Of a DNA stretch of 64,000 bases, positions 18,419-46,698 are shown in pieces (the first letter of the stretch is position 1; each line of letters begins with the position of its first letter). Origin of the DNA: a virus; IMG/VR virus record IMGVR_UViG_3300025015_000014, positions 1 through 64,000 of that record. One strand, written 5' to 3'. The position numbers and the translations under genes were made by a program. Under the pieces are notes generated by a model. That model made no database searches. It worked only from the letters and a program-made list of their open reading frames with translations, and was not told the origin of the DNA.

Positions 18419-18429
18419 CGGATCCCTCG

Positions 18430-19116: not shown

Positions 19117-19186
19117 CGAAAGTCTCCTTTTTAGCAGCCGAGGGGGCCAAACGTGGGCACTCTGCCCTCCGCTTATATGATCCCCC

Positions 19187-27711: not shown

Positions 27712-28464
27712 TTACAACTCCACAAAGCCCGCACGGTCCACCATGAACAGCTTGCTGCCTATCTTGATGGCATCCCCCACAGACATACTGGTATGCTCCA
27801 AATGCAGACCCCGGATAAGTCCCCGAGCTTCTCCACGGGGACTCCATGTTTCACCCTGCATCATTACCCACACCTTATCGAGGTTTGTTTCACGCACAGT
27901 TCCCAACAGGATATGGGTTTCCCTGATAGTTTGTGGTATGGGAAGAACCAACCCCCGCTCTTTCAGGCGGGCTGGTCCTCTAAAATAATCGTCTTCAGCC
28001 GACGGTTTCATGTACCAGATCTCGGTTTTTCCAGGAAGGTACTTATCGTTCCCTGTGACCTCCGCCGCATCTGACAAGGAAGAGTAGGAGGTGGCTGCAA
28101 ACTTGCGGATAAGGGGAAGCAGGTGCTTCCGAGTTTCAGGCTTCTCATGGGCAAGCCGGACCACATGGTCCAGAAGCGAACCACGGGCATCCTTCTTTGG
28201 CTTGTACTCATCCAATTGGTGTGCCCGGTTCAAACTCACCAAGGCAGCCGCAGCCTTCTCTGGGGAGTCATACTTCATGGGGGTTACCGCTTCCCAAACC
28301 CCCATACCCCGATAGTCAATCCGCCACTTGTCATTATGTGGCTTATCCTCCGGGGCGATACGAAAACCGGCACCCTCCACGTTGACCCCATACACGGTCC
28401 CAAGACGACCCAGGTGGACCTGAAACTTCCAAGAGGTACCTAGATGGTCATAGTTATACGTCAT
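27712..28464 (-). CDS. Two-domain protein with shared helical tag and C-terminal YodL-like domain
   Basis: Internal LLDHVVRLAHEKPETRKHLLPLIRK. C-terminal 'HTSMSVGD.I.....FMVDRAGFVEL' resembles YodL. Confidence 0.6.
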   Translation of the reverse strand: MTYNYDHLGTSWKFQVHLGRLGTVYGVNVEGAGFRIAPEDKPHNDKWRIDYRGMGVWEAVTPMKYDSPEKAAAALVSLNRAHQLDEYKPKKDARGSLLDHVVRLAHEKPETRKHLLPLIRKFAATSYSSLSDAAEVTGNDKYLPGKTEIWYMKPSAEDDYFRGPARLKERGLVLPIPQTIRETHILLGTVRETNLDKVWVMMQGETWSPRGEARGLIRGLHLEHTSMSVGDAIKIGSKLFMVDRAGFVEL

Positions 28465-29419
28465 ACTTCACCTCTCTAAATGCATCACGTAGTAATGGGA
28501 CCAAGTGCTTCCGAGTTTCGGGCACATCCTGTGCTAATTGAGCTAACCGAATCGACAAAGAACCATGCCCCCCAGTAATCTGCCGGGTGGGTTCACGTCC
28601 CCGTTGTTCCACAGTCTGACGAACCACCCACCGAGCAGCCACTTTTTTCACCACAGGATCTGCCTTGAGGAACTCGGCCACTGCCTTCTTCCACTTGGGG
28701 GGTGCTTCGAATACACCGGCTTGTCGTTTCAGGGGGTCAGCGTGCCAGAACTTGAAGACCCCGATCTCCTTGTCTTTCTTGCGCCCTTGGGGATCAGGCT
28801 GTATCACAGCAGTCGGGACACCCCGCTCGTCTTGCTTGAACTCTTTGATGATCCCCCTGTGGTTCTTGTACTTGCCGTAGAGAATTGTATCGCCCAGGTT
28901 GAAATAGGAAGCCTCAAGCTCCCCCGCTTCAATCTCCTCTGCCGTTGGGATCCGCACCGTAGCCGTCTTGATCTGTCGCATTCGTTGCCGGACCCGCTCG
29001 GTCAACCTCTCAGGGGAGACCACCAGAATCGGATCATCCAACAAGGCTTCCTGAGCCATTTGAGTCAACTGTCGGATCTCGGCACCCTTGAGGCCAAACT
29101 CCTGGATCAAGGTTGGGGTGTCCAAAACCCTCCCAGGCTGTTCCAGAGCATCAACCAGGTGTCCGGCTGCATCAGCACCCATCTGGACCGTGATCTCTCG
29201 AACCCGTGCCCGCTGGGGGGGCGAAAGGAATGGAATCTTCTTTCCAGTCGGCATCCCCATGTCCATCAAGTCAAACAAGGTTGCCAGGTCTGCTTTCTTC
29301 TCAGCCCAGTTTCCAAGAGCCTCCCGGAATCCCCGGTCGGTCTGGGCAATCTCCTTGACCACATCCAGGAGTCCAAGTTTCTCCATCTCCAGGAGGGCAC
29401 GTTTCACCTTGGGGTTCAC
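28454..29419 (-). CDS. C-terminal fragment of the CCA/poly(A) polymerase-containing protein, with extra domains and tags
   Basis: GTG at 29419 overlaps the endonuclease stop (GTGA). It begins KRALLEMEKLGLLDVV, a typical continuation of the PolyA_pol RNA-binding helices, and carries KKVAARW and a terminal LAQDVPETRKHLVPLLR. Confidence 0.6.
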   Translation of the reverse strand: MNPKVKRALLEMEKLGLLDVVKEIAQTDRGFREALGNWAEKKADLATLFDLMDMGMPTGKKIPFLSPPQRARVREITVQMGADAAGHLVDALEQPGRVLDTPTLIQEFGLKGAEIRQLTQMAQEALLDDPILVVSPERLTERVRQRMRQIKTATVRIPTAEEIEAGELEASYFNLGDTILYGKYKNHRGIIKEFKQDERGVPTAVIQPDPQGRKKDKEIGVFKFWHADPLKRQAGVFEAPPKWKKAVAEFLKADPVVKKVAARWVVRQTVEQRGREPTRQITGGHGSLSIRLAQLAQDVPETRKHLVPLLRDAFREVKYDV

Positions 29420-30243
29420 TTTAACACCCCCAACAAGTGCCCGCGACACCCCTCGGGGTCTGCCTTGATGTCCTTCTCCCACATCTCAACAAGAGTGTAC
29501 CCCCGATTGGCAAGGAAAGTCCTCTTGGCTCTATCCCGCCTGATGTTGGCCTTTTGTGTGGCATCCAAGCATTCGGGAGAATACACAGAGGGATTACCAT
29601 GCCAGTAATCCCCGTGAGTCTCGATCACGGTTTTCCCCAAGAGAAAGTCCACCACGTAGAACCCAACCACAACCTGAGAAACATAGATCTTTTCAGCCGA
29701 AATGAGCCAACTTGCAACCTCTTTCTCTATCCAAGTCGGCCTTCCACTAATAGCCCACCTAGACCACCCCTGTCGCATCTTGACTAGATGGGCTTGCCGG
29801 AATTCCTCAGACCGACCAGCCCACCGGATCGTAGCTTTTCTTGAAAGCACAAGCAACGCTGTCTCAGGAAGGGTTTTTCCTCGCATGGGGCTTGGTTTTC
29901 CGAACATGGGGTTTTCTGAACCCGCTAGCCACTTGCGTTTGCCAGAAACGAACCCCTCTTTGGCAGCTTTCCGAATCCTCTCCCGAGTATCCTCACTAAC
30001 AGTAACCCCACGACGCGCACTGGGTTTCCCAAACATCCCATTCCCAGCACCGCTCATCTTCTCAGACATGATGCGCCGAGTCTGCTCTTTGGTGTGCCGA
30101 AGATGCAGCCTCTTCACCTGTACCCGCACTGAGGTCAGAGACCGGCAAGACAACAAAGCCGCTACATCCTCAAGTGAGACCCCCTTCCCCCAAGCCTGCA
30201 CGAGAGTGTCGATCTCCTGAGAAGACCATGCTTTCCCGAACAC
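29416..30243 (-). mobile_element. Putative homing endonuclease (NUMOD3 repeats plus Vsr/DUF559-like PD-(D/E)XK domain)
   Basis: G.GNGMFGK / G.ENPMFGK NUMOD3-like repeats. C-terminal 'YVVDF...VIETHGDYWHG...D..K...GY.LV..WE.DI'. Confidence 0.75.
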
Positions 30244-31008: not shown

Positions 31009-31033
31009 GACAAGGCTCCTCTCACAAGGAGCA

Positions 31034-31050
31034 GTATAGACTCAGAACCG
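31034..31050 (-). promoter_or_regulatory. Candidate phage late promoter (CGGTTC-N5-CTAT)
   Basis: Minus strand CGGTTCTGAGTCTATAC between the portal and CCA genes. A variant of the recurring motif. Confidence 0.4.
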
Positions 31051-31062
31051 GGGCAGAGCCGC

Positions 31063-32748
31063 TTAGAACCGACCCTCTTCCTTTGTCTCTGTATACTTGA
31101 GCTTCAACCGTGCTGCAATCTGCTGAGTCAGGTCTGTCTTTTCAGCCAGGGCTGACCCTGTCGCCGAATATGCTGCCCGAAGTACCTCATTGAACAGAGC
31201 ATCGTTGAATGTGGCGAAATCTCGTTCCAGCTTCTCCTTGGTTGTGGTCGGGTCGATGTTGAGCAGATCCAGGATGATGTCAATGTCCAACGACCCCTTC
31301 TGGTAGAGATTGAACAGGGCATCGAACGTGTCAGAATTGTCTCGTAAGGCCAATCGGGTGAAGGACAATCGGGGAACTATAACGGTCAGAATCTCGTCTT
31401 CGTCCTCCTCTACAAAGCCCATTCGTTTGCACATGGGCTTGAAAAAATGTTCCTCCACCATGTCCTGAAGCACTTCCCGGAGCAGCATATACCGGGTGTT
31501 GATAACCTCCAGATGGAGTCTGTCCCCCGAATAGGTGGACTCGCCGGAAAGTAGGCTTTCGGTCACTCCCAAGCCTGCATACATCTGTCGATCAGTGAAC
31601 TCCCAGACCCAGGACCAATCAGGGAGCCGCTGGTCTGCTCCCATTTCCTCCCAGTTGACCGCAAAGTTCGTGACTATGGAAAAGTCCGGATCCTGGAGAG
31701 CCATGTCTACTTGCTCTCGCAGTGCCTCGGTCTGAAGGTCATTCATGTCCTCGGCATAGATGACCCTCATAGGCGTCATGTGCCGAGAGGCAATCGAGGT
31801 CAGAGATTGCCGCACCTTGTCACGGAAGACCAATATCCGCAGACACCGTTGGAGGATGCTCTTTCCCCTGGGTTCATATTGACTTCGCCGTCGGGCGAGG
31901 TAGTAACAGAAAGAACCGGCATCGGGATCCGTGTTCAACGGGATGTTCTGTCCGTGTTGGATTGCTTCCACCACATCTTGAGGCATGGACTGTGCAACCC
32001 GTTGAGCTTGCACATCCCCCTGTTGTGCTCTTTGAATGACCCCCTTGGTTTTGGCATCGGGAACCAGTTCGATGATTCGTTCGTCGGTGAAGGGGAAAGA
32101 CTCCATCTTCACCTGTTCCGGAGGAAGTACCCGGAGGGCTGTCCAACCTGAGTAGTTCTTCTTGAGCCAGGCTACTGCAACATCGGAGGCATCCTCCTTC
32201 TCAATCCAGGTTTCTTTGGCCTCTCCGTCGGTGTCTATCTCCCGCACGGGCCGATGGGTGATCTCTTGAGGCATGTCCGGTGAGGAATCCTCACAGAAAA
32301 TGAAAACCTCTCCGAGCAGGAAGTAATCATGGACGATCTCCATGAGTCGGTGTAACAACCCGATTTTCTTGGCCCATTTTTCACAGAACCTCAGAGACTT
32401 CTTGGCCAATTCTCGGTCTTTGGCCTCCGGCATCCCCAAACGGATCTTCGAGAGGGGCAGTTCGGTATGCAGATCAATGGCCTGACCGACGAAAGGGTCG
32501 TGCTCATAGAAAAACCGGTAGTAGTTCCGTTGTTCGTCTATCGACTGGGGCAGTTCGAGAAAGTCAGTGGAGAGTTCAGGGGAGTAGTAGTTGCCGAAAG
32601 CAGCGTTCCCGGCCATGCCCGTAGTAGGGAATGCCACACGGCGCATGGCTGCTGTGATGATCTTGTCAGGCTTACCCGTCTTGACCCCCTTACGAGGAGG
32701 GATCTGGGCAACTACCCTGGCTTCATCCGGTGGGTTTGCACGAGCCAT
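31063..32748 (-). CDS. Portal protein
   Basis: 561 aa downstream of the terminase. YRFFY..DP.VGQAIDLH.E.PLS, 'DYFLLGEVF', 'RG.SIL.R', 'AGLGV...LL.GE' fit portal architecture. Confidence 0.8.
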   Translation of the reverse strand: MARANPPDEARVVAQIPPRKGVKTGKPDKIITAAMRRVAFPTTGMAGNAAFGNYYSPELSTDFLELPQSIDEQRNYYRFFYEHDPFVGQAIDLHTELPLSKIRLGMPEAKDRELAKKSLRFCEKWAKKIGLLHRLMEIVHDYFLLGEVFIFCEDSSPDMPQEITHRPVREIDTDGEAKETWIEKEDASDVAVAWLKKNYSGWTALRVLPPEQVKMESFPFTDERIIELVPDAKTKGVIQRAQQGDVQAQRVAQSMPQDVVEAIQHGQNIPLNTDPDAGSFCYYLARRRSQYEPRGKSILQRCLRILVFRDKVRQSLTSIASRHMTPMRVIYAEDMNDLQTEALREQVDMALQDPDFSIVTNFAVNWEEMGADQRLPDWSWVWEFTDRQMYAGLGVTESLLSGESTYSGDRLHLEVINTRYMLLREVLQDMVEEHFFKPMCKRMGFVEEDEDEILTVIVPRLSFTRLALRDNSDTFDALFNLYQKGSLDIDIILDLLNIDPTTTKEKLERDFATFNDALFNEVLRAAYSATGSALAEKTDLTQQIAARLKLKYTETKEEGRF

Positions 32749-32757
32749 GCTTTACCT

Positions 32758-33066: not shown

Positions 33067-33067
33067 G

Positions 33068-33325: not shown

Positions 33326-33326
33326 C

Positions 33327-33713
33327 TCACCTCCACCAATAACAGGCCAAGCCATTGAAAAGCAAATGAATTGTGTTGTCAGCAATGATCAACAGCCACA
33401 CGGTCAACCAGGTAGGTCGGTCGTCGGGGAACCCTGTCTTGGAGCAGTTGGCCCAAGATTGATTTGAGCCAATCCAGTTCCGGAGCCAAACCAGGTAACG
33501 AGCCAACCCCCACCGGTCCATCAGAAAATGGGTGTCCAAGATGATCATCAGAGCGTGTGGCGATTGGGTAACAGCCAGGAAAGGCACGGTATAACAAGCA
33601 CAGTGAATCAGACACCATAGGCTACTGGTCCTCTTACGGAGGGCCATGGTGTCTGACTGAAGTAGGTAATCACCGACAAGATGGGCTACGATCTGGTCCC
33701 CGGTGATGATCAT
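33327..33713 (-). CDS. DUF3307-family membrane protein
   Basis: AHLVGDYLLQSD.MA..K...H...Y...THFLMDR...IADNTIH signature. Confidence 0.75.
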   Translation of the reverse strand: MIITGDQIVAHLVGDYLLQSDTMALRKRTSSLWCLIHCACYTVPFLAVTQSPHALMIILDTHFLMDRWGLARYLVWLRNWIGSNQSWANCSKTGFPDDRPTWLTVWLLIIADNTIHLLFNGLACYWWR

Positions 33714-35560
33714 CGTCGCCCTCTGATGTGTCCATGCACAAGCCGGGAGGGCTGTCGGTCAGGGCTTGTTCCATACCCTCGACGATGCAGTAGGTTCCTG
33801 GTCAGAGGTGGGACGACTGTGCCAATTGCTCTGGTGGTTGCCCCGCGTCCTGTGGCTGCATATTTGGGTTGTCCCAGATGTTGACTGGCCAGCCAAACCA
33901 TTCGCACAAGAGCATCCGAACGGTCATCGTGTTTTCCGTCGATCTTTGGAGCAGACACGATGGTCACATACTTGGACTGATACTGTGCCTGAAGCTCTAG
34001 GAGTTCTGCAATGTAGCTACAATGCTTGCCCGGCTCATTTACGGGCAGGGGCCAATCATAGAGAACCAGTCGTCGGTCCCACATCATGTCCTTGAAGTTC
34101 TGGGAAATCTTGGAGTTGAGGGGCTTGGTCATGTGTTCGGACTTCAATGCCCGAAGTCCTCGTTTCTCCAATGCCTGCTCAAATGGGATACCGGCCCATT
34201 GGTCGAACAAGCCATGGGCCAGAAAGAACTTCTTGGAAAGGGACAGGATCCAGTCAGCGACCTCCTCGAAGTCCAGTCTCTCCAACCCGGCGTGCTTTCC
34301 CTCCCCGGCTTTGATCTGGTCCACCAGATCCAACACGACTCGTTGTTCCCCGTCGATATGCCCAATGGCCACAGCCGAGGCGTCATCTACCAGACCCACG
34401 TCAATCCCGATGAAATGAGGGGTTCTGGCTGCTCCTTGGGACACGGGGCGTCTCGAAGCCTCCACACAAGCGATGAGTTCCTGTTCATCAAGCCAGCCAC
34501 AGGTTGCGTCAAGGAACTGTGCCCCGAACTCGGTAAAGAACACCACCGGATCTTTGAGGTAGTTCTTCTCCAGTTCATGAGCCGGAATGGTAGGGTTGAC
34601 TTCCCAGGTTGGAGCCTGAATTGCCAGCATGTTGGCAGAAGCTGGACCCCCAGACATGGCCATCTGGAAGAGCTTGTAGAACATCCCCTGTCTACCCAAG
34701 GGGGACGAGATAGAGATGGTGCGGCCCTCAACATGCCCAATGGGGATTCGGTGATCCTTCGGATCCTTGGGGGAGAAAGTTGCTGTCGAAGGAGTGACTG
34801 CTTTGTAAACAGCCTCAGCCGAAGACTGCCCAGCATCCGTGAAGTGTGCAATCTCGTCCAAAATGACCACAAAGTTACCAGCACCACGGAGTCCTTTGGC
34901 AATACAAGACCGGAACGTGACTTTGAGGGTGGCCTTGGCCGTAGGATCGTCTGCATACCGACCATACCGGACGATGTCCGCCGGGGTCTGAAATCGGGCA
35001 TAGGTTTGGGTGTTGTTAGCCGTGTAGGGGAGAAAGAAACCACAATTTGAGAAATGTCCCGAGGACTCCTGATAGAGCAGCCCCGCCTGGTCTTTGTCTG
35101 TGGCGACCGAGATGATCTGGATGTTGTTCGTGTGTGGGAGTCCATAATACGCTTGCGGACTGCCCTTCAGAATCAGCTTATAGGTCTCATAAGCTGCGAT
35201 GGCTGCTGCCAAAAAGGTCTTCCCCGACCTTCTGCCAATACTGAGAATTAGCTCTGTTCGCTCTTGGCCGGGGATGACTTCTCGAATGTTGGAACGGCCC
35301 TCATCGAACAGATGCCGGAGATAACTGGCCTCCGTGTAGTCTTGGAAGACCTGTTGTCGCCAGTCGGAAATCTTGAAAGTCTCATGGTCGTCCAGGGCCA
35401 GACCATAGTGGGCCTTCAGGATGATCTTCTGGACGGGGAAAAGGCGGATGTCGAGACCCCACGGGGCCTCAATGAACTCAACAACATCCGCGATCCTGGT
35501 GGACCTGGACATAGCCCTGGTGGCTTGCCCTACCGACAGTGCAATGCCACCAAGACCCAT
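33710..35560 (-). CDS. terL: Terminase large subunit
   Basis: Walker A IGRRSGKT, Walker B VVILDE, coupling motif ISSP, nuclease motifs IGIDVG and HDDRSDAL. Confidence 0.92.
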   Translation of the reverse strand: MGLGGIALSVGQATRAMSRSTRIADVVEFIEAPWGLDIRLFPVQKIILKAHYGLALDDHETFKISDWRQQVFQDYTEASYLRHLFDEGRSNIREVIPGQERTELILSIGRRSGKTFLAAAIAAYETYKLILKGSPQAYYGLPHTNNIQIISVATDKDQAGLLYQESSGHFSNCGFFLPYTANNTQTYARFQTPADIVRYGRYADDPTAKATLKVTFRSCIAKGLRGAGNFVVILDEIAHFTDAGQSSAEAVYKAVTPSTATFSPKDPKDHRIPIGHVEGRTISISSPLGRQGMFYKLFQMAMSGGPASANMLAIQAPTWEVNPTIPAHELEKNYLKDPVVFFTEFGAQFLDATCGWLDEQELIACVEASRRPVSQGAARTPHFIGIDVGLVDDASAVAIGHIDGEQRVVLDLVDQIKAGEGKHAGLERLDFEEVADWILSLSKKFFLAHGLFDQWAGIPFEQALEKRGLRALKSEHMTKPLNSKISQNFKDMMWDRRLVLYDWPLPVNEPGKHCSYIAELLELQAQYQSKYVTIVSAPKIDGKHDDRSDALVRMVWLASQHLGQPKYAATGRGATTRAIGTVVPPLTRNLLHRRGYGTSPDRQPSRLVHGHIRGRR

Positions 35561-35564
35561 AGAC

Positions 35565-36239: not shown

Positions 36240-36249
36240 AGCCGTCTCC

Positions 36250-36928: not shown

Positions 36929-37258
36929 TTAATCTTTCACCCGTTTACCTGGGCCGTCCCAAGTACCCTCGGTAACTTCAATGGCCCCATCCCAAAAACC
37001 GCCACGGATTTTGGCAGTCCCTGATATACGACAGTCGCCAGACACACGGGCACGGCCAGAAACCTCGGCATTGTCAAACACCTCGGCGTCGTCAGACACC
37101 CAGGCATCGTCAGACACCTTGGCTTTATCCCGCACACGGGGATTTTTAGGGGCGGCAGAATCTAGGGATTCTTCGGCGGCTTGACGAAGAAGAGGAATCA
37201 GATGCCGTCGAAGTTCAGGATGATCGTGAGCTAGTTTGAGAACTTGATTGCGTAACAT
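36929..37258 (-). CDS. Tagged small protein with hexapeptide (left-handed beta-helix) repeats
   Basis: N-terminal LRNQVLKLAHDHPELRRHLIPLLR, then AKVSDD-AWVSDD-AEVFDN-AEVSGR-ARVSGD-CRISGT-AKIRGG. Confidence 0.7.
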   Translation of the reverse strand: MLRNQVLKLAHDHPELRRHLIPLLRQAAEESLDSAAPKNPRVRDKAKVSDDAWVSDDAEVFDNAEVSGRARVSGDCRISGTAKIRGGFWDGAIEVTEGTWDGPGKRVKD

Positions 37259-37275
37259 CAAAATCCCCCAGACGC

Positions 37276-37638
37276 TCATTTGCATCTCTGCACACAGTTT
37301 TGATAGTCATCCTGATTATGGTAGGCCGGGTTGTCCTGACAATCATGCACACAGTCTAAGTTCTTCTTGTCTGCGGCTTCTTGTTCGGGAGTCTTCGGAA
37401 CCTTGGGGGCTTTTTCCTCGCCCTTTGGTTTCTCTGGGGCTTTTTCCTCGCCTTTGGCCTTCTCAACCAAACTCTCCGGGGGCTTCTTCGAATCCGGGTG
37501 CTCTTTCTTGTATGCCTCCCAGAGTTTTTTCAGCCGGTCCTTGAAGCCCGCATCCTTGCGTAGCAACGGCACAAGATGACGCCGCAATTCCGGAACAGCA
37601 TGAGCCAACTTGATAACCCGACTACGTAGATCCGACAT
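37276..37638 (-). CDS. Tagged small Lys/Glu-rich protein with C-terminal CxxxC...CxxxC
   Basis: N-terminal LRSRVIKLAHAVPELRRHLVPLLRK, duplicated KGEEKAP, GGAGG RBS. Confidence 0.65.
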   Translation of the reverse strand: MSDLRSRVIKLAHAVPELRRHLVPLLRKDAGFKDRLKKLWEAYKKEHPDSKKPPESLVEKAKGEEKAPEKPKGEEKAPKVPKTPEQEAADKKNLDCVHDCQDNPAYHNQDDYQNCVQRCK

Positions 37639-39827
37639 CAAGACACCTCCATTCCGCCAAAAAGTACATCCCCAAGTTCCTCGTTAGAGGTACTCCCGGT
37701 TGTGATGTTATCGAGATCTGTGTTCCCCAGCTTGAACTCAGCGGGGTCAAACAAAGAAGCTGTCACTTCGGCATCCGACGCATTGGCCAAACGAATTGCC
37801 TCAGTCTGATAGACCTTTGGATCCTTGATGGGTGGGCTTGCGACCAGCCGCTTGTTGTATGCCTGACAGAACCCGTGGGCATTCTTCAGAGAACACGACT
37901 CACATCTATCCAGAGCCAACACGGTCTTGAGAGCATTCCCTCGATGCTTCAGGGCACCTTTATCACAACCGGTTATCCCGGCAGAAGAAACATAGGCTCC
38001 GGCATCCACATAGAGATGTCCGGACAAACCCTCATGTTGCCGACGGAGACTTGTCAGAATCTTGGCCCCGGCTGTCAACAGGGGCTTGGCAAATCGGGCC
38101 GCCAGGAGTTCATCGAAATCCCGACCCACAACCCCTTCGCTCATCTGTTGCCGTGCCCACCGGGCCATCCGTCGAAACTCTATAGCTGGGATTCCAGACC
38201 CCTGAGCCGCTGCCAGAAATCTCCGTTCCTCTGGGGGCAGATCAGTCACAGCCCGTCGAATCTGTGGGGCTGCCTCTTGAGTTGGCCCGACATACTCCGC
38301 AGTTTTGACTACTGGCAGAGCCACCTTTCGACGTTCTCGGGCTACTTGGACAGCAGCAACCGTGATTCGTTCGATCTCTGCCGCTGTCTTGCCAAGTTTC
38401 ACGATCCGTTGAGCTTCCGTTTTTGTGAGGCTTCCAGCCTTCACATGTCGGGCCAGAGCAACCATCGCCCGTTTCCGTTGGGCTGCCTCTACCTCTACCT
38501 GTTTCTCCTCGCCAGACTGGGGTTCCGGCTTCGGAGCTTCCTTGGCCCCTATTCCAACCCCGGCATAGACGGTGGTTGAATCGTGAGACGCAACTATTGC
38601 GGCAGCCTTCTTGGCCAGCAAAACTGGCTCGGCGATTGCAGCAGCTAGTTTTTGGGCTACGTCCCGTTGCAGACGACCCTCTTTGACCCAGCGGGCCATA
38701 ACCAACAGAACCTGCCGCCGTTTACCAGATACCGCCTTTTCCTCGGCCGTCTTGGGGGTCTCAACCGGAGCCTGTGGGGGCTGCTCCCGAGTGGCTTGTA
38801 CCTCGGGTTTCTCGACGGGTTGGAAGATGGAAGGGGGTAGCTTCTGAACCGGCTCAGACAGGAAGGCTGCCTTGAGCACGGCTTTTGGTTCCCCGGTAAA
38901 GACCTTGAAGCCCGCAGCCCGGAGGCGTCCTGTGTAGAAAGACAGGGCCTTCTTCCAAGGAACTTCCTGTACGGCTTCCATTGAGAGCTTGGGAGCAAGA
39001 GTGGGATCCTCTGTAATGACGTACCGAGCCGTTCGACAACCCCGTTTGACCTCTTGTACCCATTGCCCGTTCTTGAGTCCGGGGAACACGGAAGCCCGGA
39101 CAAATACCCGACCAGCAAGCCCGTGTTCGGCGACCAGACGTTTCCAGACCCCCTGGACCTTCCGGAAATCAGAACCCACGCTCTGTTTCAGTTCAGCCTC
39201 AATGCGTCGAAGGTCGTGTCCGAAATGGGATCGTCGCATCGCCCGATACACGGCGGCCTGAAGTTCCTCTGCCGTTCTTGCTCCTGGCAACCCAGACTTC
39301 GGCCCCCCTTCCTCTTCCAGGGTTTTCTCGTAGTCTGCAATCTCCTTGTCCTTGTTGGGCATCAAATGAATGCCGTCGGTCTGAGAACGACCCCAGGCTT
39401 TCTCCAGAGCTTGTTCTGTTGGTGATGGCGGCGGCAAAGCCACGTTCGGGTTATGAGGGAGTCGGTCTGGATCCTGTTCCTGAGTGGGATCTAACCAGGA
39501 TAGATCAATGACCCCAGCCTCTTTTGGAAGTGCCCCCTCATCTTCAGAAAGCATCTCGGCCAAGTCCGGGCCGATGTCATCCTCAGTCAGTTCGGCGAGA
39601 TCTAAGGGTTCTTCTGTTTCGGTCACAATGCCATCGGGAAGTCCGGACAACCCCTTGGTTTCGGGCAACCGGGCTGAATCCAACACCCCTTCGTTCATCG
39701 TCTGGTCGAACTGCCAACCATCAAGGCCGAAGTTCGAGCCATTCGTGAAGGTCACATCATCCTCGGGAAGAACAGATTCCCCGAGAAGGTTGGCAACCCA
39801 GTTGTCTCCTTGACGCTTGTTGGACAT
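37638..39827 (-). CDS. Large hypothetical protein with internal duplications and a Cys cluster
   Basis: AAGGAG upstream of the ATG at 39827. Repeated EHGLAGRVFV/HEGLSGHLYV and ARWVKEGRL/ARHVKAGSL, plus C..C.......C. Confidence 0.65.
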   Translation of the reverse strand: MSNKRQGDNWVANLLGESVLPEDDVTFTNGSNFGLDGWQFDQTMNEGVLDSARLPETKGLSGLPDGIVTETEEPLDLAELTEDDIGPDLAEMLSEDEGALPKEAGVIDLSWLDPTQEQDPDRLPHNPNVALPPPSPTEQALEKAWGRSQTDGIHLMPNKDKEIADYEKTLEEEGGPKSGLPGARTAEELQAAVYRAMRRSHFGHDLRRIEAELKQSVGSDFRKVQGVWKRLVAEHGLAGRVFVRASVFPGLKNGQWVQEVKRGCRTARYVITEDPTLAPKLSMEAVQEVPWKKALSFYTGRLRAAGFKVFTGEPKAVLKAAFLSEPVQKLPPSIFQPVEKPEVQATREQPPQAPVETPKTAEEKAVSGKRRQVLLVMARWVKEGRLQRDVAQKLAAAIAEPVLLAKKAAAIVASHDSTTVYAGVGIGAKEAPKPEPQSGEEKQVEVEAAQRKRAMVALARHVKAGSLTKTEAQRIVKLGKTAAEIERITVAAVQVARERRKVALPVVKTAEYVGPTQEAAPQIRRAVTDLPPEERRFLAAAQGSGIPAIEFRRMARWARQQMSEGVVGRDFDELLAARFAKPLLTAGAKILTSLRRQHEGLSGHLYVDAGAYVSSAGITGCDKGALKHRGNALKTVLALDRCESCSLKNAHGFCQAYNKRLVASPPIKDPKVYQTEAIRLANASDAEVTASLFDPAEFKLGNTDLDNITTGSTSNEELGDVLFGGMEVS

Positions 39828-40477
39828 TATCGGCTCCTTGCCTGATGGCGGGCCGCCACCCTCAACACCAACGGATCGGCACAACCCGTTGATGCCTGTT
39901 TCATCCGACTGGCCTTCTTACCCTGTTGTTCCTCATCCATCTCGGCTTCTTCGCCCTCGGCCCAATCCTCGGGATCTGCCTTGATTTCTTCCACGTCCTC
40001 CATGATCTCCTGAACCTGTTCCCGCTCCCTGGGCTGATCGGTCACATGTTCTGACGACCAATGGGGAGCATGGATCTCATCATAGAGGGTGTCGGACAAA
40101 GAGGAAAGAGCCTCCACCACGTTCATGAAAGCCCGTCGCATCTCGGCAATCTTCTGAATGTAGCCTCGGCCGCCCAAGTTCCCATCAGGACTAAGGGCTG
40201 CTGATTTCAACCGAGTAAAAGAATCATAGGCCGACAAAGCATGTCCCATGGACATCAAGGTAGAACGCAAGGTTCTGGCTAAGGGTTGGAGTTTCCGGGC
40301 ATCAAACTTGAAGTCCGGATCCATCTTCCGTTTCTCTGGCCCAGGAACACCCCAGCCCCAGTTCTTGTCATCGGATCCCCGGTCCTTGATGAAACGAACT
40401 TCGCCAGCCGTTTTCACTCGCTGGGATCGAACAGCCACTCGGGCTATCAAGCTGTCATTCCGGGTTTTGTGACTCAT
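39827..40477 (-). CDS. Hypothetical protein
   Basis: Starts MSHKTR. Contains IARVAVRS near the N-terminus and LRVAARH near the C-terminus. Confidence 0.65.
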   Translation of the reverse strand: MSHKTRNDSLIARVAVRSQRVKTAGEVRFIKDRGSDDKNWGWGVPGPEKRKMDPDFKFDARKLQPLARTLRSTLMSMGHALSAYDSFTRLKSAALSPDGNLGGRGYIQKIAEMRRAFMNVVEALSSLSDTLYDEIHAPHWSSEHVTDQPREREQVQEIMEDVEEIKADPEDWAEGEEAEMDEEQQGKKASRMKQASTGCADPLVLRVAARHQARSR

Positions 40478-40500
40478 CTCTCCCACCCAAAGACCCCATT

Positions 40501-40517
40501 GTATAGGCCGATAACCA
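40501..40517 (-). promoter_or_regulatory. Candidate phage late promoter (TGGTTA-N5-CTAT)
   Basis: Minus strand TGGTTATCGGCCTATAC in the gap upstream of 40477. Confidence 0.35.
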
Positions 40518-40520
40518 GAC

Positions 40521-41384
40521 TTACCCCCCTGCCAAGGTCTCAGCCTGGGGCACCCCAAAGTCTTTCTCCAGGTTCACCGAATCGAAATGGAACCGTCGTC
40601 CATCCCAGATCAAGTACCGATGGCCAATCAAGTACAGGAGTCGGGCTATAATGGCTGCCGGAAACAGGGTGAACGTCCCGAGATGCAGGGCATTCATCAA
40701 GGCTCCGATGGCTGAACTGGGAAGAGACCCCAACAAATCAACCAAAGCAATGTGTCCAGTCATGGCATCTGTCAGGCTCTTCACATCCCACTCGAACTCC
40801 ACGACGTTGAACCAAACCCAGATGTAGATAGCAGCCATCAACACCGTGGAGACCACCGGGAGATGTTCCCGAAGCCACTGGTCGAACTGATCCACCTTGG
40901 CTTTGGCATGAGTGCGTAACCAACGGTCAAAAGCCGGGTACTTCTTGACCAACTTGTCCAGAAGGTCATTCACACTGAAGACCTTGCCCTTCTCCAGGGT
41001 GTAGATCTTCAGAGGCCAGGTCTCAAAAGCCTTCTCCAACAGACCCCGAAGATACCTGTAGCCCTTCTGAGCCAACTCCTTGATCGCCTTGGGGATGTCC
41101 CAGAGAGACTCGATGCCTATGAGACTCTTGAACTTCTCCCATAGTTGCGGGGCTTTCTTGAAAAGGTCGGTCAGTTGCTTGAGCTTCTGGATCAGACCCG
41201 CCACATGGATTTGGCCTGAGTGTGTTGGGAGGTAGAATCCCTCAACGAAGGCTTCTACCACACGGGGGGTCAGATCGTGGAGGGTTGCCCCTCGGGTTCT
41301 GAAGGCTGGGGTCTCACAGGCTTGTCGAACAGCGAGCCTGATGAGATACCGATCAGCAACCCTTTGAGCCAGATCCTGCATCAA
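40521..41384 (-). CDS. Hypothetical protein with C-terminal hydrophobic helices
   Basis: N-terminal LAQRVADRYL. Hydrophobic segments VVSTVLMAAIYIWVWF and TLFPAAIIARLLYLI. Confidence 0.6.
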   Translation of the reverse strand: MMQDLAQRVADRYLIRLAVRQACETPAFRTRGATLHDLTPRVVEAFVEGFYLPTHSGQIHVAGLIQKLKQLTDLFKKAPQLWEKFKSLIGIESLWDIPKAIKELAQKGYRYLRGLLEKAFETWPLKIYTLEKGKVFSVNDLLDKLVKKYPAFDRWLRTHAKAKVDQFDQWLREHLPVVSTVLMAAIYIWVWFNVVEFEWDVKSLTDAMTGHIALVDLLGSLPSSAIGALMNALHLGTFTLFPAAIIARLLYLIGHRYLIWDGRRFHFDSVNLEKDFGVPQAETLAGG

Positions 41385-42055
41385 AAACCCCTCGTCTCCG
41401 CCTCTGTTCCCCTAGCCTCAGCCTGTGTCTCATCAGACATGGAAAAGCGTCGTCTCGCTGCTTCGCGGGCCGACTGGGACATTTTCTGCCGAGTGGCTTC
41501 CGAAACTGGCGGACGATGAAGGGCATATTCCCGCATCTTCTGTTTGGCTTCCTCTGTATGGGGCCTCCCCACAGGAGCAGGTCGTCCCGCAAAAGCCTTC
41601 TGCATTTTCTCTCTATGCCCTGGGGTAGCCCAAAGAGACCTGGCTTTCTGTGCAGCCTCCTGCCGAAGAGTCCCGTCTTGCCACCGACGGGTCTGAACCT
41701 CGTGTAGATTTAGTCGCTGTTCTGTCGTTCGGGTCTTGCCCTTTAAAGCTGCCGACAACCTCTGCCGATAAACCGGATCTTGAGCACGTTTCTGAGCTAC
41801 TTGGCACATCAAACCTCTTGATGTAGGGCTTCGCTTTTTACCTTTGCTCAAACGAGACATCAAAGCCTTGAACTCCGAAGAGATGGCCTCTTGGTATGTC
41901 TTATCTTCATGGCAATTTGCACAAATAAGCTGCCTGTTCTCGGCCTCATCTGACCCCCCTTGCCACTTTGGGACAACATGATCCCAGTGTAAAGAGGTCC
42001 GCCAACAACCACACTTGGTACAATTTCCACTCGGACGCTTGCGAGTCTTAGTCAT
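41381..42055 (-). mobile_element. HNH endonuclease with NUMOD3-like repeats (putative homing endonuclease)
   Basis: C..C.....LHWDHVVPKWQGGSD...N.Q.ICANCH..KT, followed by GKKRS/GKTRT/GRPHTEEAKQKM repeats. Confidence 0.8.
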
Positions 42056-42081
42056 GGCTTCAGTATAACAGATCAAGCCCA

Positions 42082-42744
42082 TCATACAATACCAAAAACC
42101 AACAGCCACGAAGGCGATCCATCATTGCCCCAACCATCTGGTTCAACCCGCTTTCCAGAAGGGGTTGTGGCCACTGCATCATCCGACATTTTCTCCAATC
42201 GGGCTAAACCTGGTGGCTTTGCCACTCCCCCGACCATCTCCCAAAGTCGGGTGATGGATACCTTCATGGGGTCAAACCGGTAGTTTCGTCCGGTCGTGGG
42301 CGACACCCATTCCAGAACCAAATGGGCCAGGGTTGCTCCATGGGGATCCCGTTCACCGAGATACTTGACCTCGGCACGGGTTCCTTTGGGGACTATGTCC
42401 CCGTTCTTGAGCTTCAGGTCTTTCTTGGTGGCGGTCATCCCGGCCTTCTTCTGACTGGCAAAAAAATGACTGGGAAGCCTGAGACCCAAAGAATTAGCCG
42501 CCTTGAAGATGTTGTTCCTCTGAAGGTCTGGTTGCCACCGACCTACGTTCTCGACGGATCCATGAAGCCGAGCGAGAGCCTCACGCTGGTTAGTTGTCAG
42601 GTCTAGGGCATCGGCAAGAGCCGACCAAACATCCCGGAGCAATTCGGCTGATTGTTCATCAGTTTTTGCCAGACTGTCATAGAGCCTCTCAAAGGCTTGA
42701 CGCCCAACCAGAGCCCCCAAAACATCATGTCCGGTCATGGGCAT
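42082..42744 (-). CDS. Modular hypothetical protein
   Basis: 220-aa ORF with two parts joined at 'KKAG'. Ends VEPDG..DG.PSWLL..G, a motif seen in small phage proteins. Confidence 0.6.
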   Translation of the reverse strand: MPMTGHDVLGALVGRQAFERLYDSLAKTDEQSAELLRDVWSALADALDLTTNQREALARLHGSVENVGRWQPDLQRNNIFKAANSLGLRLPSHFFASQKKAGMTATKKDLKLKNGDIVPKGTRAEVKYLGERDPHGATLAHLVLEWVSPTTGRNYRFDPMKVSITRLWEMVGGVAKPPGLARLEKMSDDAVATTPSGKRVEPDGWGNDGSPSWLLVFGIV

Positions 42745-42745
42745 A

Positions 42746-43303: not shown

Positions 43304-43305
43304 GT

Positions 43306-44025
43306 TTAGACCCCTCCTGGAATAGGAGCCTGTTTCCCCACCCGATCCCCAGGAGAGGCAACGTCCAACAAATAGGCATTCCCGTTCGGCGTCCGCCAAT
43401 AACCCCCAAAGAGACTACTGTCATCCCGCCATTTCATTTGCTGTCCACGGGCAAAAGTCTCGATCTGATCAAGGCTTCCCATAGCCACAATCGTACCTGT
43501 GGCCCCCGTCACGGACGCTTGCTCCACCAACTTGAGGTTCCTGTCACCGGCTGTTCTCCGCAACAGGGGCAAGAGGTGTTGTCTCAGTTCTGGGTGCTCA
43601 TGAGCCAACTTGATGATCTGTTCTCGCAAGCCACTCGCTTTGAGAATGCGGTGCTCTTGTAGATACTTCAAAAGCCGTTCTGGTTCCGCCTGGGTCTCAT
43701 CCAAAACGAAAGCAATCGGGTTCTTCATGATGTGCTCGGCTATCCGTCTAGCCTCTTGCTCCGAACGAACCTTCTTGGAATACCACTGATAGTAAGGGGC
43801 TGATCCCCCATGCCCGGGATACCTTGGTGCCATGCTCACATGGAACTCATCGGGCTTTGCTACAACACTTCCCCGATCAACCACAACACCCACGAACAGA
43901 GTCTTGTTATACCAAGCTGCGATCTGCCACTCCGGAAACGGTACTTTCACTTCTTCCCATTTCAAGAATGCTCTTGGAGGGCGAACCTTCCAAAGATGCA
44001 ACCGGGCCAACATCTCATTCCCCAT
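43306..44025 (-). CDS. Two-domain protein joined by the shared helical tag
   Basis: TAATG overlap at 44025. Internal KASGLREQIIKLAHEHPELRQHLLPLLRRTAG. Confidence 0.65.
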   Translation of the reverse strand: MGNEMLARLHLWKVRPPRAFLKWEEVKVPFPEWQIAAWYNKTLFVGVVVDRGSVVAKPDEFHVSMAPRYPGHGGSAPYYQWYSKKVRSEQEARRIAEHIMKNPIAFVLDETQAEPERLLKYLQEHRILKASGLREQIIKLAHEHPELRQHLLPLLRRTAGDRNLKLVEQASVTGATGTIVAMGSLDQIETFARGQQMKWRDDSSLFGGYWRTPNGNAYLLDVASPGDRVGKQAPIPGGV

Positions 44026-45278
44026 TAGTTCACCCCTCCCCGGCACACAGTCCATCTCACGGACATCGTCTGTGCCGAATTGAAGTTGATCGTGAATCCA
44101 GCAGCCGTCCTGGCAGTGGTCCACGGTGGTTCGTCATTGGCCGGGTGAGCCCCAAGCTCCAAACCAACCCTGTAGTTTGTATCCGGCTGGGGCACAGCAA
44201 ACACAACCGCCTTAGTGGCCTCAGCCCCGAAAGCTACCTCCCCATACTGCACGGTTTCGCTCAAAGTGGCTGTTCCCCCTGGTGTGATCGTGCCCCTTGT
44301 TGACCCTGTCAAACGCAAGGCCAGGGAATCTGCGAGGGTGATGCTTCCCAGGGTCGAGCCCTGAATCACAATGGGTCGGTCTCCTGACAGGGTTGTCGTG
44401 GCTACCGTGCAGCCATTGAGCAAAACAGACCCGGTCCCGATCATCCCCAGAGTCACGGGGAACAGCAACGTGGAAACGGCACCCACGTCACAAGCGTCTA
44501 CCAGGTACAAGGGGGTGGCCCCATCGGACGGGAGGTCATTGGTGTTGTCATAGGTCAACTGAATACCGGGTACTCGGTTGATTGACCGAAGCATAACTCG
44601 GGAACAGTCTTCAGCACGGATCAGAGCCAGGGTCGAAGAAGCCATCTGGGAACCACCTTGAACCAGAATCCGATTGGCTGTGGTTGCCCATAGAGGATAG
44701 TTACCTCCCGCAGCCGAGGCTTCCAGGTCACAATCCAGGATCTGAATCCCTCGGAGACCAACATTGGAGGCAGCTCCACCCACGACCCGGACACAAGCAA
44801 AGGTGTCATGGATGTTCTGAATCGTGAGTCCCTGAAGAATCACTGAGGTCGGGGTTGTTCCCAGGGCCGTCTGAATGACGATGGTGTGGTATGCAGCCGG
44901 ACCATTCGGAACCGTCTCGACTGCCCGAATGACCGGGTTACCCCAACCCAGAAGCATGACCCCATCGCGCACGATGTTGAGTGTCTCGGTGTAGAGGCCC
45001 GGCCCGACAATGACCACGTAGGGGTTCTGCCAGGAGGCACTGGACGGGATGACATCAAGAGCAGCCTGAATGGTTGTGTATCTGGCCCCGGCTCCGGATC
45101 GGCCTACGAGAAGAAGGTTGCCAACCGCGATCCCGGCCAGTTGTCGTAAGGTGATGGCCCCCGTGATGAGGGCATCCAGAAACTCCAGGGATCCATCAGT
45201 AGCACGACGGATCAGTCGTAGCCCTGCGGCACCGGGTTCAATCTGAAGTTGGTCAATCTGGAATGGATCTTGGGCCAT
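44025..45278 (-). CDS. Putative tailspike/virion protein with right-handed beta-helix and C-terminal lectin-like domain
   Basis: YTTIQAALD...VIVGPGLYTE is a pectin-lyase-like entry motif. C-terminal 'VVFAVPQPDTNYRV...RTAAGFTINF'. Confidence 0.6.
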   Translation of the reverse strand: MAQDPFQIDQLQIEPGAAGLRLIRRATDGSLEFLDALITGAITLRQLAGIAVGNLLLVGRSGAGARYTTIQAALDVIPSSASWQNPYVVIVGPGLYTETLNIVRDGVMLLGWGNPVIRAVETVPNGPAAYHTIVIQTALGTTPTSVILQGLTIQNIHDTFACVRVVGGAASNVGLRGIQILDCDLEASAAGGNYPLWATTANRILVQGGSQMASSTLALIRAEDCSRVMLRSINRVPGIQLTYDNTNDLPSDGATPLYLVDACDVGAVSTLLFPVTLGMIGTGSVLLNGCTVATTTLSGDRPIVIQGSTLGSITLADSLALRLTGSTRGTITPGGTATLSETVQYGEVAFGAEATKAVVFAVPQPDTNYRVGLELGAHPANDEPPWTTARTAAGFTINFNSAQTMSVRWTVCRGGVN

Positions 45279-45283
45279 TCAGC

Positions 45284-45970
45284 CTACCCCACAAACACGT
45301 CGTAGCCGACGGTAACAGATTGCCCAGCCCCAAGCACCTGACCCAAAATAATCGTGAACCCGGTCTTGGCCTTACTGGTGGCTGTAGCCGTAAAGAACCC
45401 GTTGGGAGAGAACACCACCCGGTAAGCCGCCGTGGACAAGGCCGCCGTAAACACTACCGCCTTTGATCCCCCATCTGCATCCGTCAGGGTTACTGTCCCA
45501 CTGGTGGTGCTCACTTGCTGCGTGGCAACCAGAATCACGTAGGTCACGGTGATGGGGACGAGTACCGTACCATAGATTGCCGGGGCTTCGGCTGTGAACC
45601 CGGTTGCCGTCTTGCCCGTGGTTCGAAGGATCGTCCCATCGGGGGTTGTGTAGACCACTCGATAGTTGGCGTTGTTGAGAACCCCTGGAGCAATGACCAC
45701 TGCCATTGAGGCTACGCCCGCAAAGACAATGTTCCCACTAACCACCTGTGTTTCGTGAAGAAGCTGTGTGGTTGTGTACTTGGCCTCTGTGATGTCATCC
45801 ATTACGGAGGTCGGGACACTGGTGATTGAATCTGTAATGAGTCCCTTTGGTCCTCGGATGTTTCGTACCGACACCAAACCCTGGGCGTCTACCACCACAT
45901 CGAAGTAGTAGCTCTGCCCCCCGGATGCGGAGGTGTAGGTGATTACGGATTGAGTACGAGAAAGCGCCAT
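45284..45970 (-). CDS. Putative virion protein with two lectin-like repeats
   Basis: Duplicated 'YRVV.......KT.TGFT...' modules similar to the C-terminus of 44025..45278. TGATG overlap at the start. Confidence 0.6.
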   Translation of the reverse strand: MALSRTQSVITYTSASGGQSYYFDVVVDAQGLVSVRNIRGPKGLITDSITSVPTSVMDDITEAKYTTTQLLHETQVVSGNIVFAGVASMAVVIAPGVLNNANYRVVYTTPDGTILRTTGKTATGFTAEAPAIYGTVLVPITVTYVILVATQQVSTTSGTVTLTDADGGSKAVVFTAALSTAAYRVVFSPNGFFTATATSKAKTGFTIILGQVLGAGQSVTVGYDVFVG

Positions 45971-46698
45971 CACACCCCTCGTGGCCGATGACGAAGCAAG
46001 GGTACCAAAAGGCAACGGAATTCCGGATGCTCATGGGCCAGCTTGGCAATCTGGTCCCGCAATCCCCCTGCCGTCTTGATCCTGACATCTCCTTCTATGT
46101 AGTTCCGCATGTTGAGGGAGAAACGCACCCCAGGGTATCTATCAAGATTGAATTTGATGCTCGACCCAGTAACAGCCACGATCTGTCCTGCATCCCCCAC
46201 CCGTATGGGGTATGCCCGACCAAACATGAGGGGCTTCAGGAACTCCAGGGTCATCCCTTTCTTGGGCTGAACGAGATGGGTTTCCCCAGCCTCAAGCAAG
46301 GTGAAATACTTGGGGTTCCACTGTCGAATTTTAGCCCCGTGTTGTTCCTGCGTCAGGGTGCCCCCACCCGCCTTTTGGGCCAGAATCTTGTCCCACTCCG
46401 GGTGTTCATACATGGGGATGCTGTACTCTATGTCCTCTTCGTACCAGTACGCCCCACCCCAAAAATCCCCGAGTTTGACAGCGGCAGGGGTCAACATCTT
46501 CCGGGCCACTGAGGGAGATACCATCAAGCCGCCGTGCCCCGCTGTAGTGAACCAACGAACCCCTGGGATTATGTTGTAGACCCCTTGAGCCGGTCCCCAT
46601 GGCGTTTTGGGGGCTTTCGGATCCGGAAACGGGTAGTCCGACCAAGAACCGTCTTCGCCCGCCGTTCTGTACATCTTACCAAATCCCTGTTGTTTCAT
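45970..46698 (-). CDS. DUF7007-like domain protein with C-terminal shared tag
   Basis: TPWG.AQ...PGV....TAGHGGL.VS...WYEED. C-terminal KTAGGLRDQIAKLAHEHPEFRCLLVPLLR. Confidence 0.6.
   Translation of the reverse strand: MKQQGFGKMYRTAGEDGSWSDYPFPDPKAPKTPWGPAQGVYNIIPGVRWFTTAGHGGLMVSPSVARKMLTPAAVKLGDFWGGAYWYEEDIEYSIPMYEHPEWDKILAQKAGGGTLTQEQHGAKIRQWNPKYFTLLEAGETHLVQPKKGMTLEFLKPLMFGRAYPIRVGDAGQIVAVTGSSIKFNLDRYPGVRFSLNMRNYIEGDVRIKTAGGLRDQIAKLAHEHPEFRCLLVPLLRHRPRGV

Follow-up and report, generated by a model that had tools for sequence, protein, structure and literature searches.

A basic, amphipathic peptide of about 25 to 27 residues, in the following referred to as the tag, recurs in otherwise unrelated proteins of a viral genome from IMG/VR (record IMGVR_UViG_3300025015_000014). 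Positions 1 to 64,000 of this record are called the window, and coordinates marked as genome refer to the whole virus record of 132,786 bp. The tag is real, portable and selected at the peptide level. It is virus-specific and restricted to one clade of huge phages with a common head-gene set, where it is predominantly N-terminal in the viral contigs sampled and occurs in arrays of variable genes. The searches of curated families, solved structures and literature returned no description of the peptide. Most likely it is a shared targeting or encapsulation peptide, unusual in its size, copy number and positional freedom. The best reading of the circumstantial evidence is that the tag brings unrelated accessory proteins to a shared site by targeting them to the prohead or virion, a reading which we hold tentatively and with somewhat less than even confidence.

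A six-frame scan of the window with a strict regular expression yielded exactly six matches, all on the minus strand and each in frame within a long open reading frame (ORF). The six copies reported by the first-pass annotation were thus all found in the coding frames of six minus-strand genes:

28096..28176, minus strand: tag copy 1, internal, residues 94-125 of the 250-residue protein at 27712-28464 (regular expression; profile E 3.3e-18)
28478..28558, minus strand: tag copy 2, C-terminal, residues 305-338 of the 342-residue protein at 28454-29482 (regular expression and profile)
37175..37255, minus strand: tag copy 3, N-terminal, residues 8-40 of the 118-residue protein at 36929-37285 (regular expression and profile)
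37549..37629, minus strand: tag copy 4, N-terminal, residues 2-34 of the 121-residue protein at 37276-37641 (regular expression and profile)
43549..43629, minus strand: tag copy 5, internal, residues 162-194 of the ORF at 43306-44124 (regular expression and profile)
45982..46062, minus strand: tag copy 6, C-terminal, residues 210-241 of the 242-residue DUF7007 protein at 45970-46698 (regular expression and profile)

A profile hidden Markov model (HMM) of these six copies was searched against 2680 six-frame fragments of the whole genome. The training copies were recovered with E 1.6e-19 to 1.3e-17, and two further copies beyond the window, which were not part of the training set, showed E 3.2e-9 (genome 92986-93087) and E 6.4e-9 (genome 130167-131195), followed by a next best match of E 0.14. 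The search of this genome and its relatives that the first-pass annotation had proposed therefore returned two additional copies here and many in related huge phages. The first of the additional copies is an ORF of 31 residues comprising nothing but the tag, directly upstream of a free-standing HAD_SAK RNA-repair gene and beside a tRNA array, and the second, located at genome 130164-130991, opens an ORF of 275 residues lying between two tRNA genes. Altogether, the tag is N-terminal in four of the eight proteins; the six window copies are evenly divided between N-terminal, internal and C-terminal positions (two each), in agreement with the positional freedom described before. The consensus is L-R-x-x-h-I-[RK]-L-A-H-x-x-P-E-h-R-x-H-L-h-P-L-L-[KR], with L, A, P, E, R, L, P and R invariant in the alignment of the eight copies. 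At genome 92775-93087, the tag-only ORF is followed by an ORF of 67 residues in another frame, the start of which looks like a degenerate tag, and then by HAD_SAK in the third frame; these ORFs may be remnants of a tag-HAD fusion or of a frameshifted gene.

With the tags masked, an all-against-all BLASTP comparison of the eight proteins gave no pair better than E 0.21, which bears out the claim that the carriers are otherwise non-homologous. The earlier observation of synonymous differences between the copies also held: over the 28 pairs of tag DNA copies, the mean proportion of synonymous differences was 0.81 compared to 0.35 for non-synonymous differences. Since synonymous sites are saturated, the repeat is kept by selection on the peptide and is not a recent DNA repeat. 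An origin as chance motif, low-complexity sequence or translated DNA repeat can accordingly be regarded as refuted, as this saturation is accompanied by thousands of independent database matches and by the two untrained copies (E 3e-9 and 6e-9 versus 0.14 for the next best match).

The structure of the tag was predicted with AlphaFold2 on a natural two-tag database protein (P0118) together with 10 relatives. Each tag was modelled as two helices broken at the conserved proline (tag 1: residues 3-16 and 18-32) with a predicted local distance difference test score of 74-85, while the remainder of the protein was of low confidence and the predicted template modelling (pTM) score was 0.23. Based on this low pTM, the tag does not appear to fold against its own protein, and it looks like an autonomous helical element that packs neither on its carrier nor on a second tag. 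A pairing of tags was considered and left no sign in this model, which is a weak test.

The protein bodies joined to the tag (passengers) are diverse, and three of the six in the window belong to no Pfam or PHROG family. Among these is the passenger of 27712-28464, for which neither a Pfam (E <= 1) nor a PHROG family (E <= 0.1) was found, so that its former label "YodL-like" has no Pfam support. The DUF7007 label of 45970-46698 was in contrast clearly recovered (Pfam E 6.1e-19). The suggested link of 28454-29482 to a CCA-adding enzyme also stands, as its residues 11-169 are homologous to the C-terminal part of a 711-residue CCA-enzyme ORF in the relative G007; this supports its identification as the C-terminal half of a split CCA-adding enzyme. 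Two homing-type endonuclease genes lie among the inserted tag genes (window 29416-30243 and 41381-42109), one with weak Vsr/DUF559-like matches and the other with HNH and NUMOD3, and the first of them (29416-30243) splits the CCA-adding enzyme gene. The passenger of 36929-37285 matches PHROGs of unknown function (E 1.2e-12) and, below threshold, a YdcK beta-solenoid repeat in Pfam. In 37276-37641, the sequence that follows the tag is also present in further tagged database proteins (P0007, P0129) and resembles a stretch of a 1773-residue polyprotein of the same genome. The true start of the ORF at 43306-44124 is probably near residue 34; its product is 75% identical to P0092 (239 residues), and P0078 (107 residues) consists of an N-terminal tag and only the C-terminal domain of this product, which makes a module boundary within the latter visible.

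Further identifiable passengers in relatives and databases comprise RelA/SpoT, pentapeptide repeats and a ParB-like stretch, the last of which was recognized by eye and not by a family search. A Pfam search of 130 tagged database proteins left nearly all of them without a family and showed LRV repeats in two and pentapeptide repeats, RelA/SpoT, WGR and DUF7717 in one each. The identifiable passengers (DUF7007, CCA enzyme, RelA/SpoT, pentapeptide repeats and, by eye, ParB-like) are of conflict or repair type.

For the distribution of the tag, a profile of the eight copies was compared with 1.84 billion representative proteins. It matched 2156 protein clusters at a threshold of E <= 1e-3, of which 118 remain at E <= 1e-10. 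Among 154 retrieved sequences, 153 carried tags, with 309 instances in total, of which 111 were N-terminal, 53 C-terminal and 145 internal. One tag was present in 33 of these proteins, two in 87, three in 30 and four in 3; the retrieved set is the top-ranked one, and the ranking favours proteins with several tags. All of the 10 tagged database proteins that were looked up are metagenomic, one of them encoded on a contig of 437,927 bp. No family covers the tag in the six window proteins (Pfam E <= 1, PHROGs E <= 0.1), and no curated family lies over it in 10 multi-tag proteins or in 130 further tagged proteins. The tag profile gave no match at E <= 10 against 177,635 distinct PDB sequences, and an ESM Atlas search on the tag region returned no usable match. 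In the literature searched, no paper describing the peptide was found; the supplementary domain tables of PMC5512222 could bear on this point. Taken together, the unrelated bodies, the number of clusters, the varied positions, the up to four to five tags per protein and the lack of an entry in known domain libraries agree with the view of a portable tag on diverse passengers put forward in the first-pass annotation.

In 596 Gb of prokaryote genomes, a strict IUPAC DNA pattern of the tag matched only three times; each match is a true tag at an N-terminus and lies on a contig of at most 10 kb in a metagenome-assembled genome. The same pattern detected 61 stretches on 37 contigs in IMG/VR, most of which are 40-536 kb long, and 60 of the 61 stretches were confirmed by the HMM. 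These stretches contain 106 tags, of which 78 have a methionine at most six residues upstream and therefore start their protein, and only 5 are C-terminal; some stretches overlap, so that these numbers are approximate. In this sample of viral contigs, which is less biased than the top-ranked proteins, most genes have one N-terminal tag. When 16 of the IMG/VR contigs were searched as a whole, each contained 1-15 tags; 11 carried a major capsid protein (MCP) 85-92% identical to the one described below, two showed weak partial matches, and three short fragments showed none. In 50,697 deposited phage genomes, the tag was found only in LR745208.1, an unannotated metagenomic record of 485 kb.

The large terminase TerL of the present genome is 61-66% identical to that of a set of huge-phage contigs. 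A scan of nine whole records of these relatives detected 10 tags in G007, 8 in G009, 2 in G005 and none in the other six, and a separate scan of LR745208.1 detected 11. In a TerL tree, five of the records without tags (G001, G003, G004, G006, G008) form one clade with a support of 92/91, and the placement of the other genomes, including the tagless G002, is unresolved. In four members of the tagless clade (G001, G003, G006, G008; loci L054, L040, L061, L037), the sequence matching TerL forms the C-terminal portion of open frames of 1041-1362 residues, which suggests an N-terminal fusion or an inserted element.

In the relatives, tag genes are scattered genome-wide and also form arrays, with 9 to 11 matches in each of the stretches fetched from G019, G015 and G018. 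These arrays consist of adjacent small genes with unrelated bodies, mostly with a start methionine, the tag, then K-E/Q/S/T-A-A/G and then unrelated sequence. With N-terminal tags in arrays of small unrelated genes, they resemble the T4 loci of internal proteins that share a capsid-targeting sequence. Between and within G007, G009 and LR745208.1, tags are about 67-80% identical although their passengers differ, which implies a conserved receptor. Genome-specific "dialects" of the tag, as expected for co-evolution with a receptor, were considered and set aside: the identity of 0.685 within compared to 0.594 between genomes is not decisive, since it originates mostly from the present divergent genome, and for the tags of G007, G009 and LR745208.1 a comparison between genomes gives about the same likeness as one within a genome.

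All long ORFs around the tag region are on the minus strand. The neighbouring genes relevant to the head and its packaging are as follows:

12630-13502, minus strand: MCP (PHROG major head protein, E 8.1e-51)
between MCP and putative scaffold, in the head-assembly block 12630..19194, minus strand: p234, a protein of 234 residues
14412-16337, minus strand: putative scaffold of 641 residues, very acidic and repeat-rich (from sequence features)
16334-17845, minus strand: prohead protease (PHROG head maturation protease, E 2.5e-8)
between protease and p254, minus strand: p190
18430-19194, minus strand: p254, between polyvalent protein and protease
19198-27702, minus strand: polyvalent protein of 2834 residues with InPase, DUF5661, M14-like peptidase, topoisomerase IB and RNA ligase (Pfam)
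31063-32748, minus strand: portal (PHROG, E 1.7e-32)
33710-35560, minus strand: large terminase TerL (PHROG, E 2.7e-23)
47036-47698: sigma factor (Pfam)
48221-49681: clamp loader (Pfam)

The six tag genes of the window abut or overlap the genes of portal, terminase and polyvalent protein on the same strand in tight co-directional strings, an arrangement which points to a possible co-transcription with these core genes. Besides, the tag-bearing block contains the sigma factor and the homing-type endonucleases. In G007, G009 and LR745208.1, a core string is contiguous in the order sigma factor, p107, p243b, p417, p217, p243, p748, p224, TerL, portal and polyvalent protein, continuing with p254, p190, protease, scaffold, p234 and MCP, and it is mostly present in the tagless G003 as well, where the order of the head-assembly genes is likewise conserved. 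The tag genes of the present genome have no counterparts at the same positions of this string in the relatives and are therefore insertions between core genes, beside homing-type endonuclease genes. The claim that the tag occurs only in the morphogenesis block consequently did not hold, as the two additional copies adjoin or lie inside tRNA arrays and the same core block of relatives is without tag genes; the location in the head region is a feature of this genome and not of the tag. A single tag ORF of 143 residues lies between the scaffold and p234 genes of LR745208.1. The HAD_SAK part belongs to the polyvalent protein in two relatives, while in the present genome it is free-standing directly downstream of the tag-only ORF.

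Candidates for the receptor of the tag are the proteins of the head-assembly block (12630..19194). Within the clade, conservation is highest for the MCP, with 86-88% identity compared to 62-65% for TerL and 45-53% for the protease. Across the clade, the MCP (85-92%) ranks above TerL (61-66%), portal (about 66%) and protease (45-53%), which is an unusual order of conservation. The HMM search of the genome detected no tag in the putative scaffold. This protein contains about eight K/E/D-rich repeats with a unit of about 20 residues, and its N-terminus comprises two copies of the motif P-G-Y-x-x-E-D-x-D-H-P-A-H. An identification of the receptor by its phylogenetic profile was attempted and given up; because the absence of tags amounts to roughly one gain or loss, co-occurrence has low power. 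In this comparison, p254 was present in 15 of 15 tag-rich genomes and absent from the six tagless genomes and from G005, which has two tags. As its co-occurrence is confounded by phylogeny and G005 is tagged without p254, this candidate tag partner is a lead and not evidence.

Further observations concern the surroundings of these genes. ARAGORN predicted 50 tRNA genes and a tmRNA beyond the window (genome 93500-99600 and 108900-132200) and none inside it. A RecD2-like helicase gene (genome 67099-70839, minus strand) matches LAGLIDADG and intein-splicing domains and thus probably contains an intein. By eye, a second motif, [R/K]-[V/I]-A-x-R-[W/Y], was recognized at termini and domain junctions between window 9040 and 46960 and at genome 92186-92854, namely in the polyvalent protein, in 28454-29482, 39827-40558, 40521-41384 and 46676-46999, at the C-terminus of HAD_SAK and in a 684-residue protein (genome 86951-89002). 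Since only 2 of the 154 retrieved database proteins contain it, this motif is independent of the tag.

When the 154 retrieved proteins were compared with the present genome after masking of the tags, several modules of untagged proteins were found joined to tags. With the 1773-residue polyprotein, 29 of them have a stretch of about 78 residues in common as a module (about 72% identity). This polyprotein is the product of the following gene:

genome 80068-85386, minus strand: 1773-residue beads-on-a-string protein with DUF2958, three kinds of repeated Cys-pair/acidic spacer modules and 8 KTA[G/S/A] junctions

The HMM search detected no tag in this polyprotein. The p254 module of about 45 residues is shared by 10 of the 154, where it stands directly after a tag, and it recurs between tags. 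Another 6 share a module with the 684-residue protein (genome 86951-89002, minus strand), the N-terminus of which resembles a decayed tag (HMM E 22). Behind this N-terminus lies a conserved module of about 64 residues, which contains Cys and has no Pfam family; it is also found behind intact tags in these 6 database proteins and in G015. The tag is hence one element of a pool of mini-modules that are combined in different ways.

The flanks of the 309 instances show a preference for small residues. Downstream of the tag, position +2 is A in 38% and position +3 is A or G in 39%, while upstream, S takes position -1 in 36%, A position -2 in 23% and K position -4 in 23%. This corresponds to a pattern of K-x-[A/S]-S ahead of the tag and [K/E/Q]-A-[A/G] behind it, so that the K/R-x-A flanks noted before hold as a tendency. 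In the present genome, the related motif KTA[GSA] was observed 16 times compared to 2.7 +/- 1.6 expected; 8 of these sites fall into the polyprotein and 3 into the putative scaffold. The motif was considered as a tag-tied site of the prohead protease and then demoted, since the enrichment is missing in G009 (3 versus 2.5 expected) and present in the tagless G003 (15 versus 4.7) as well as in G007 (11 versus 3.9). Cleavage at K-x-A-[G/S/A] beside the tag is thus put forward as a hypothesis based on the flanking residues.

Under the preferred reading of prohead or virion targeting, the tag would act as a portable docking label, by which any carrier is recruited to one common receptor encoded by the clade. 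The most likely receptor would be the interior of the assembling prohead, where the tag could dock either to the scaffolding core or to the MCP from the inside. Diverse accessory and effector proteins could in this way be co-packaged and delivered together with the DNA, and K-x-A-[G/S/A] beside the tag may be the place where it is cut off after delivery. Receptor, packaging, cleavage and injection are inferred. The reading is favoured by the tight strings which the tag genes form with portal, terminase and polyvalent protein, by the HAD_SAK domain as a part of the polyvalent protein in two relatives and as the neighbour of a tag-only ORF here, by the conflict or repair type of the identifiable passengers, and by the arrays of differing small genes that mostly begin with the tag. 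The mode of action would be comparable to that of the T4 capsid-targeting sequence, of the 30 N-terminal residues of P1 DarB or of the C-terminal helix-turn-helix of the P22 scaffold.

A number of observations weigh against this reading. Many database proteins contain two to five tags, which is more than an address label needs, and a RecD-like helicase is among the tagged proteins (P0128). The polyvalent protein of 2834 residues, the best candidate for a packaged protein, is without a tag according to the HMM search of the genome. Only 2 of 47 TerL-flanking loci of relatives (at most 10 kb on each side) contain a tag, and in G007, G009 and LR745208.1 the orthologous head block is contiguous without tag genes, the tags lying elsewhere. 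The tagless sister clade has an MCP with 86% identity, so that the MCP alone is no predictor of tags. The same holds true for the KTA[GSA] motif, the enrichment of which is not tied to the tag. Finally, the sole tagged record among the deposited phage genomes is metagenomic, and no cultured phage is represented.

An alternative that we consider unlikely, but worth serious attention, is a hub other than the capsid, where the tag would gather proteins at another structure of phage or host, such as a replication or translation/RNA-repair factory, a chaperone or a protease adaptor. This would suit those passengers with a role in tRNA or RNA metabolism or in the cytoplasm (CCA-adding enzyme, RelA/SpoT, RecD-like helicase), the HAD_SAK gene beside the tag-only ORF, the tagged gene inside the tRNA array and the genome-wide scatter of tag genes in relatives. 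However, the analysis brought up no candidate for such a hub, cellular genomes lack the tag apart from the three matches in 596 Gb, it is confined to phages with one common head-gene set, and the arrays with N-terminal tags match loci of packaged effectors. Improbable to a greater degree is the idea of a sticker, according to which tags bind each other or a repeated partner and build an inner body or condensate, with the single-tag proteins as clients. It could explain that 120 of the 153 top-ranked proteins, a set in which the ranking favours several tags, have two to four tags with K/E-rich low-complexity spacers and mini-modules in between, and encapsulation peptides of bacterial microcompartments (BMC), which are short helices on disordered linkers, are linked to condensation in PMC12339742. 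AlphaFold2, as weak evidence, does not pack the two tags of P0118 together, and in the less biased sample of viral contigs one N-terminal tag per gene prevails.

Slightly less probable still, the tag could be a junction or processing module of polyproteins that is recognized by a phage protease and cut at K-x-A-[G/S/A], with terminal tags as leftovers of gene fission. The small-residue motifs on both sides of the tag, the about 6-fold enrichment of KTA[GSA] in the present genome with its concentration in the 1773-residue protein and the putative scaffold, and the 29 of 154 database proteins in which polyprotein modules are fused with tags are in line with such a role. In contrast, the 1773-residue polyprotein itself lacks a tag, tag and site enrichment do not go together from genome to genome, and most tags are plain N-terminal leaders of small single-domain genes. 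A broader scenario would combine packaging with the sticker idea: in a capsid-internal cargo system, the tag would be carried once by dozens of rapidly exchanged effector genes and two to five times by K/E-rich sticker-spacer proteins, forming a protein body in the prohead that is loaded with anti-defence and RNA-repair enzymes and injected with the DNA. We regard this scenario as doubtful, rating it between the non-capsid hub and the sticker. If it holds, the tag would make the injected proteome recognizable from sequence in thousands of genes of uncultured phages and could serve to load foreign proteins into the capsids of huge phages.

The preferred reading of the tag as a label for prohead or virion targeting matters because most genes of huge phages are without known function and sequence alone does not reveal whose products are carried by the virion. 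Should the tag prove to be a packaging label, the injected effectors of a whole uncultured clade could be listed by a simple profile search; they would comprise at least 2156 clusters, most of them without a Pfam family. The principle known from T4, a single address used by many cargoes, would then have arisen independently at a far larger scale, and a handle for protein encapsidation that is both compact and portable would be available. If the receptor is not the capsid, the tag still defines an unrecognised, virus-confined network of protein recruitment.

The capsid-targeting sequence (CTS) of T4 comprises about 10 residues. In comparison, the tag is longer, with about 25-27 residues and two predicted helices, and it also occurs internally, C-terminally and in several copies per protein; the likeness of the two is one of architecture and not of compared sequences. 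As described in PMC3012670, the internal proteins of T4 (IPI-III) and other T-even phages are encoded by hypervariable arrays of differing small genes sharing this sequence. In both cases, a short conserved leader is found on otherwise unrelated small proteins of fast turnover and in clustered genes, and a small conserved motif follows as a candidate protease site (PMC3012670). An N-terminal position is seen for 78 of 106 tags in the viral stretches, compared to 4 of 8 in the present genome and 111 of 309 instances in the top-ranked database proteins. For DarB of phage P1, about 30 N-terminal residues suffice for capsid entry, even of a heterologous protein, and the cargo is an anti-restriction protein of the polyvalent type; its authors found the Dar proteins to have no consensus in common (PMC9024508). 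Unlike in P1, the peptide described here is common to eight or more proteins per genome and to thousands overall.

By fusion to the helix-turn-helix of the P22 scaffold, foreign cargo has been loaded into capsids. According to PMC9965877, this C-terminal element (residues 271-300) attaches to the inside of the procapsid, with one copy for each coat subunit, and the P22 capsid is presented as a nanocage tool (PMC9962691). With its about 30 residues the P22 element may resemble the tag, for which the model predicts two helices with a break. The tag profile has no similarity to any PDB chain, solved scaffold domains included (177,635 sequences, E <= 10). Furthermore, the P22 motif is part of one scaffold protein, whereas the tag is carried by many proteins and is absent from the putative scaffold.

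Encapsulin shells have the HK97 fold, as phage capsids do. Encapsulation peptides of BMC and cargo-loading peptides of encapsulins are described as short helices on flexible linkers, which are located at either end of the cargo and direct it into the shell (PMC4594438 and PMC12339742). Compared to the cargo-loading peptides of encapsulins, which are short C-terminal extensions, the tag is longer and helical, and only 5 of 106 tags are C-terminal. While both of these systems are cellular, the tag is essentially absent from cellular genomes and different in sequence, and the shell would be a DNA-filled virion.

A further point of comparison is given by the polyvalent proteins of phages and conjugative elements described by Iyer et al. 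2017 (PMC5512222), as the tag-bearing genomes encode classic polyvalent proteins beside the portal. The domains of polyvalent proteins given in the same source include RelA/SpoT, a tagged domain in relatives. No LPD or other Pfam family matches the tag, and a search for selected terms in PMC5512222 gave no indication of such a tag. While polyvalent proteins join their effectors covalently, the tag would join effectors non-covalently to the same destination.

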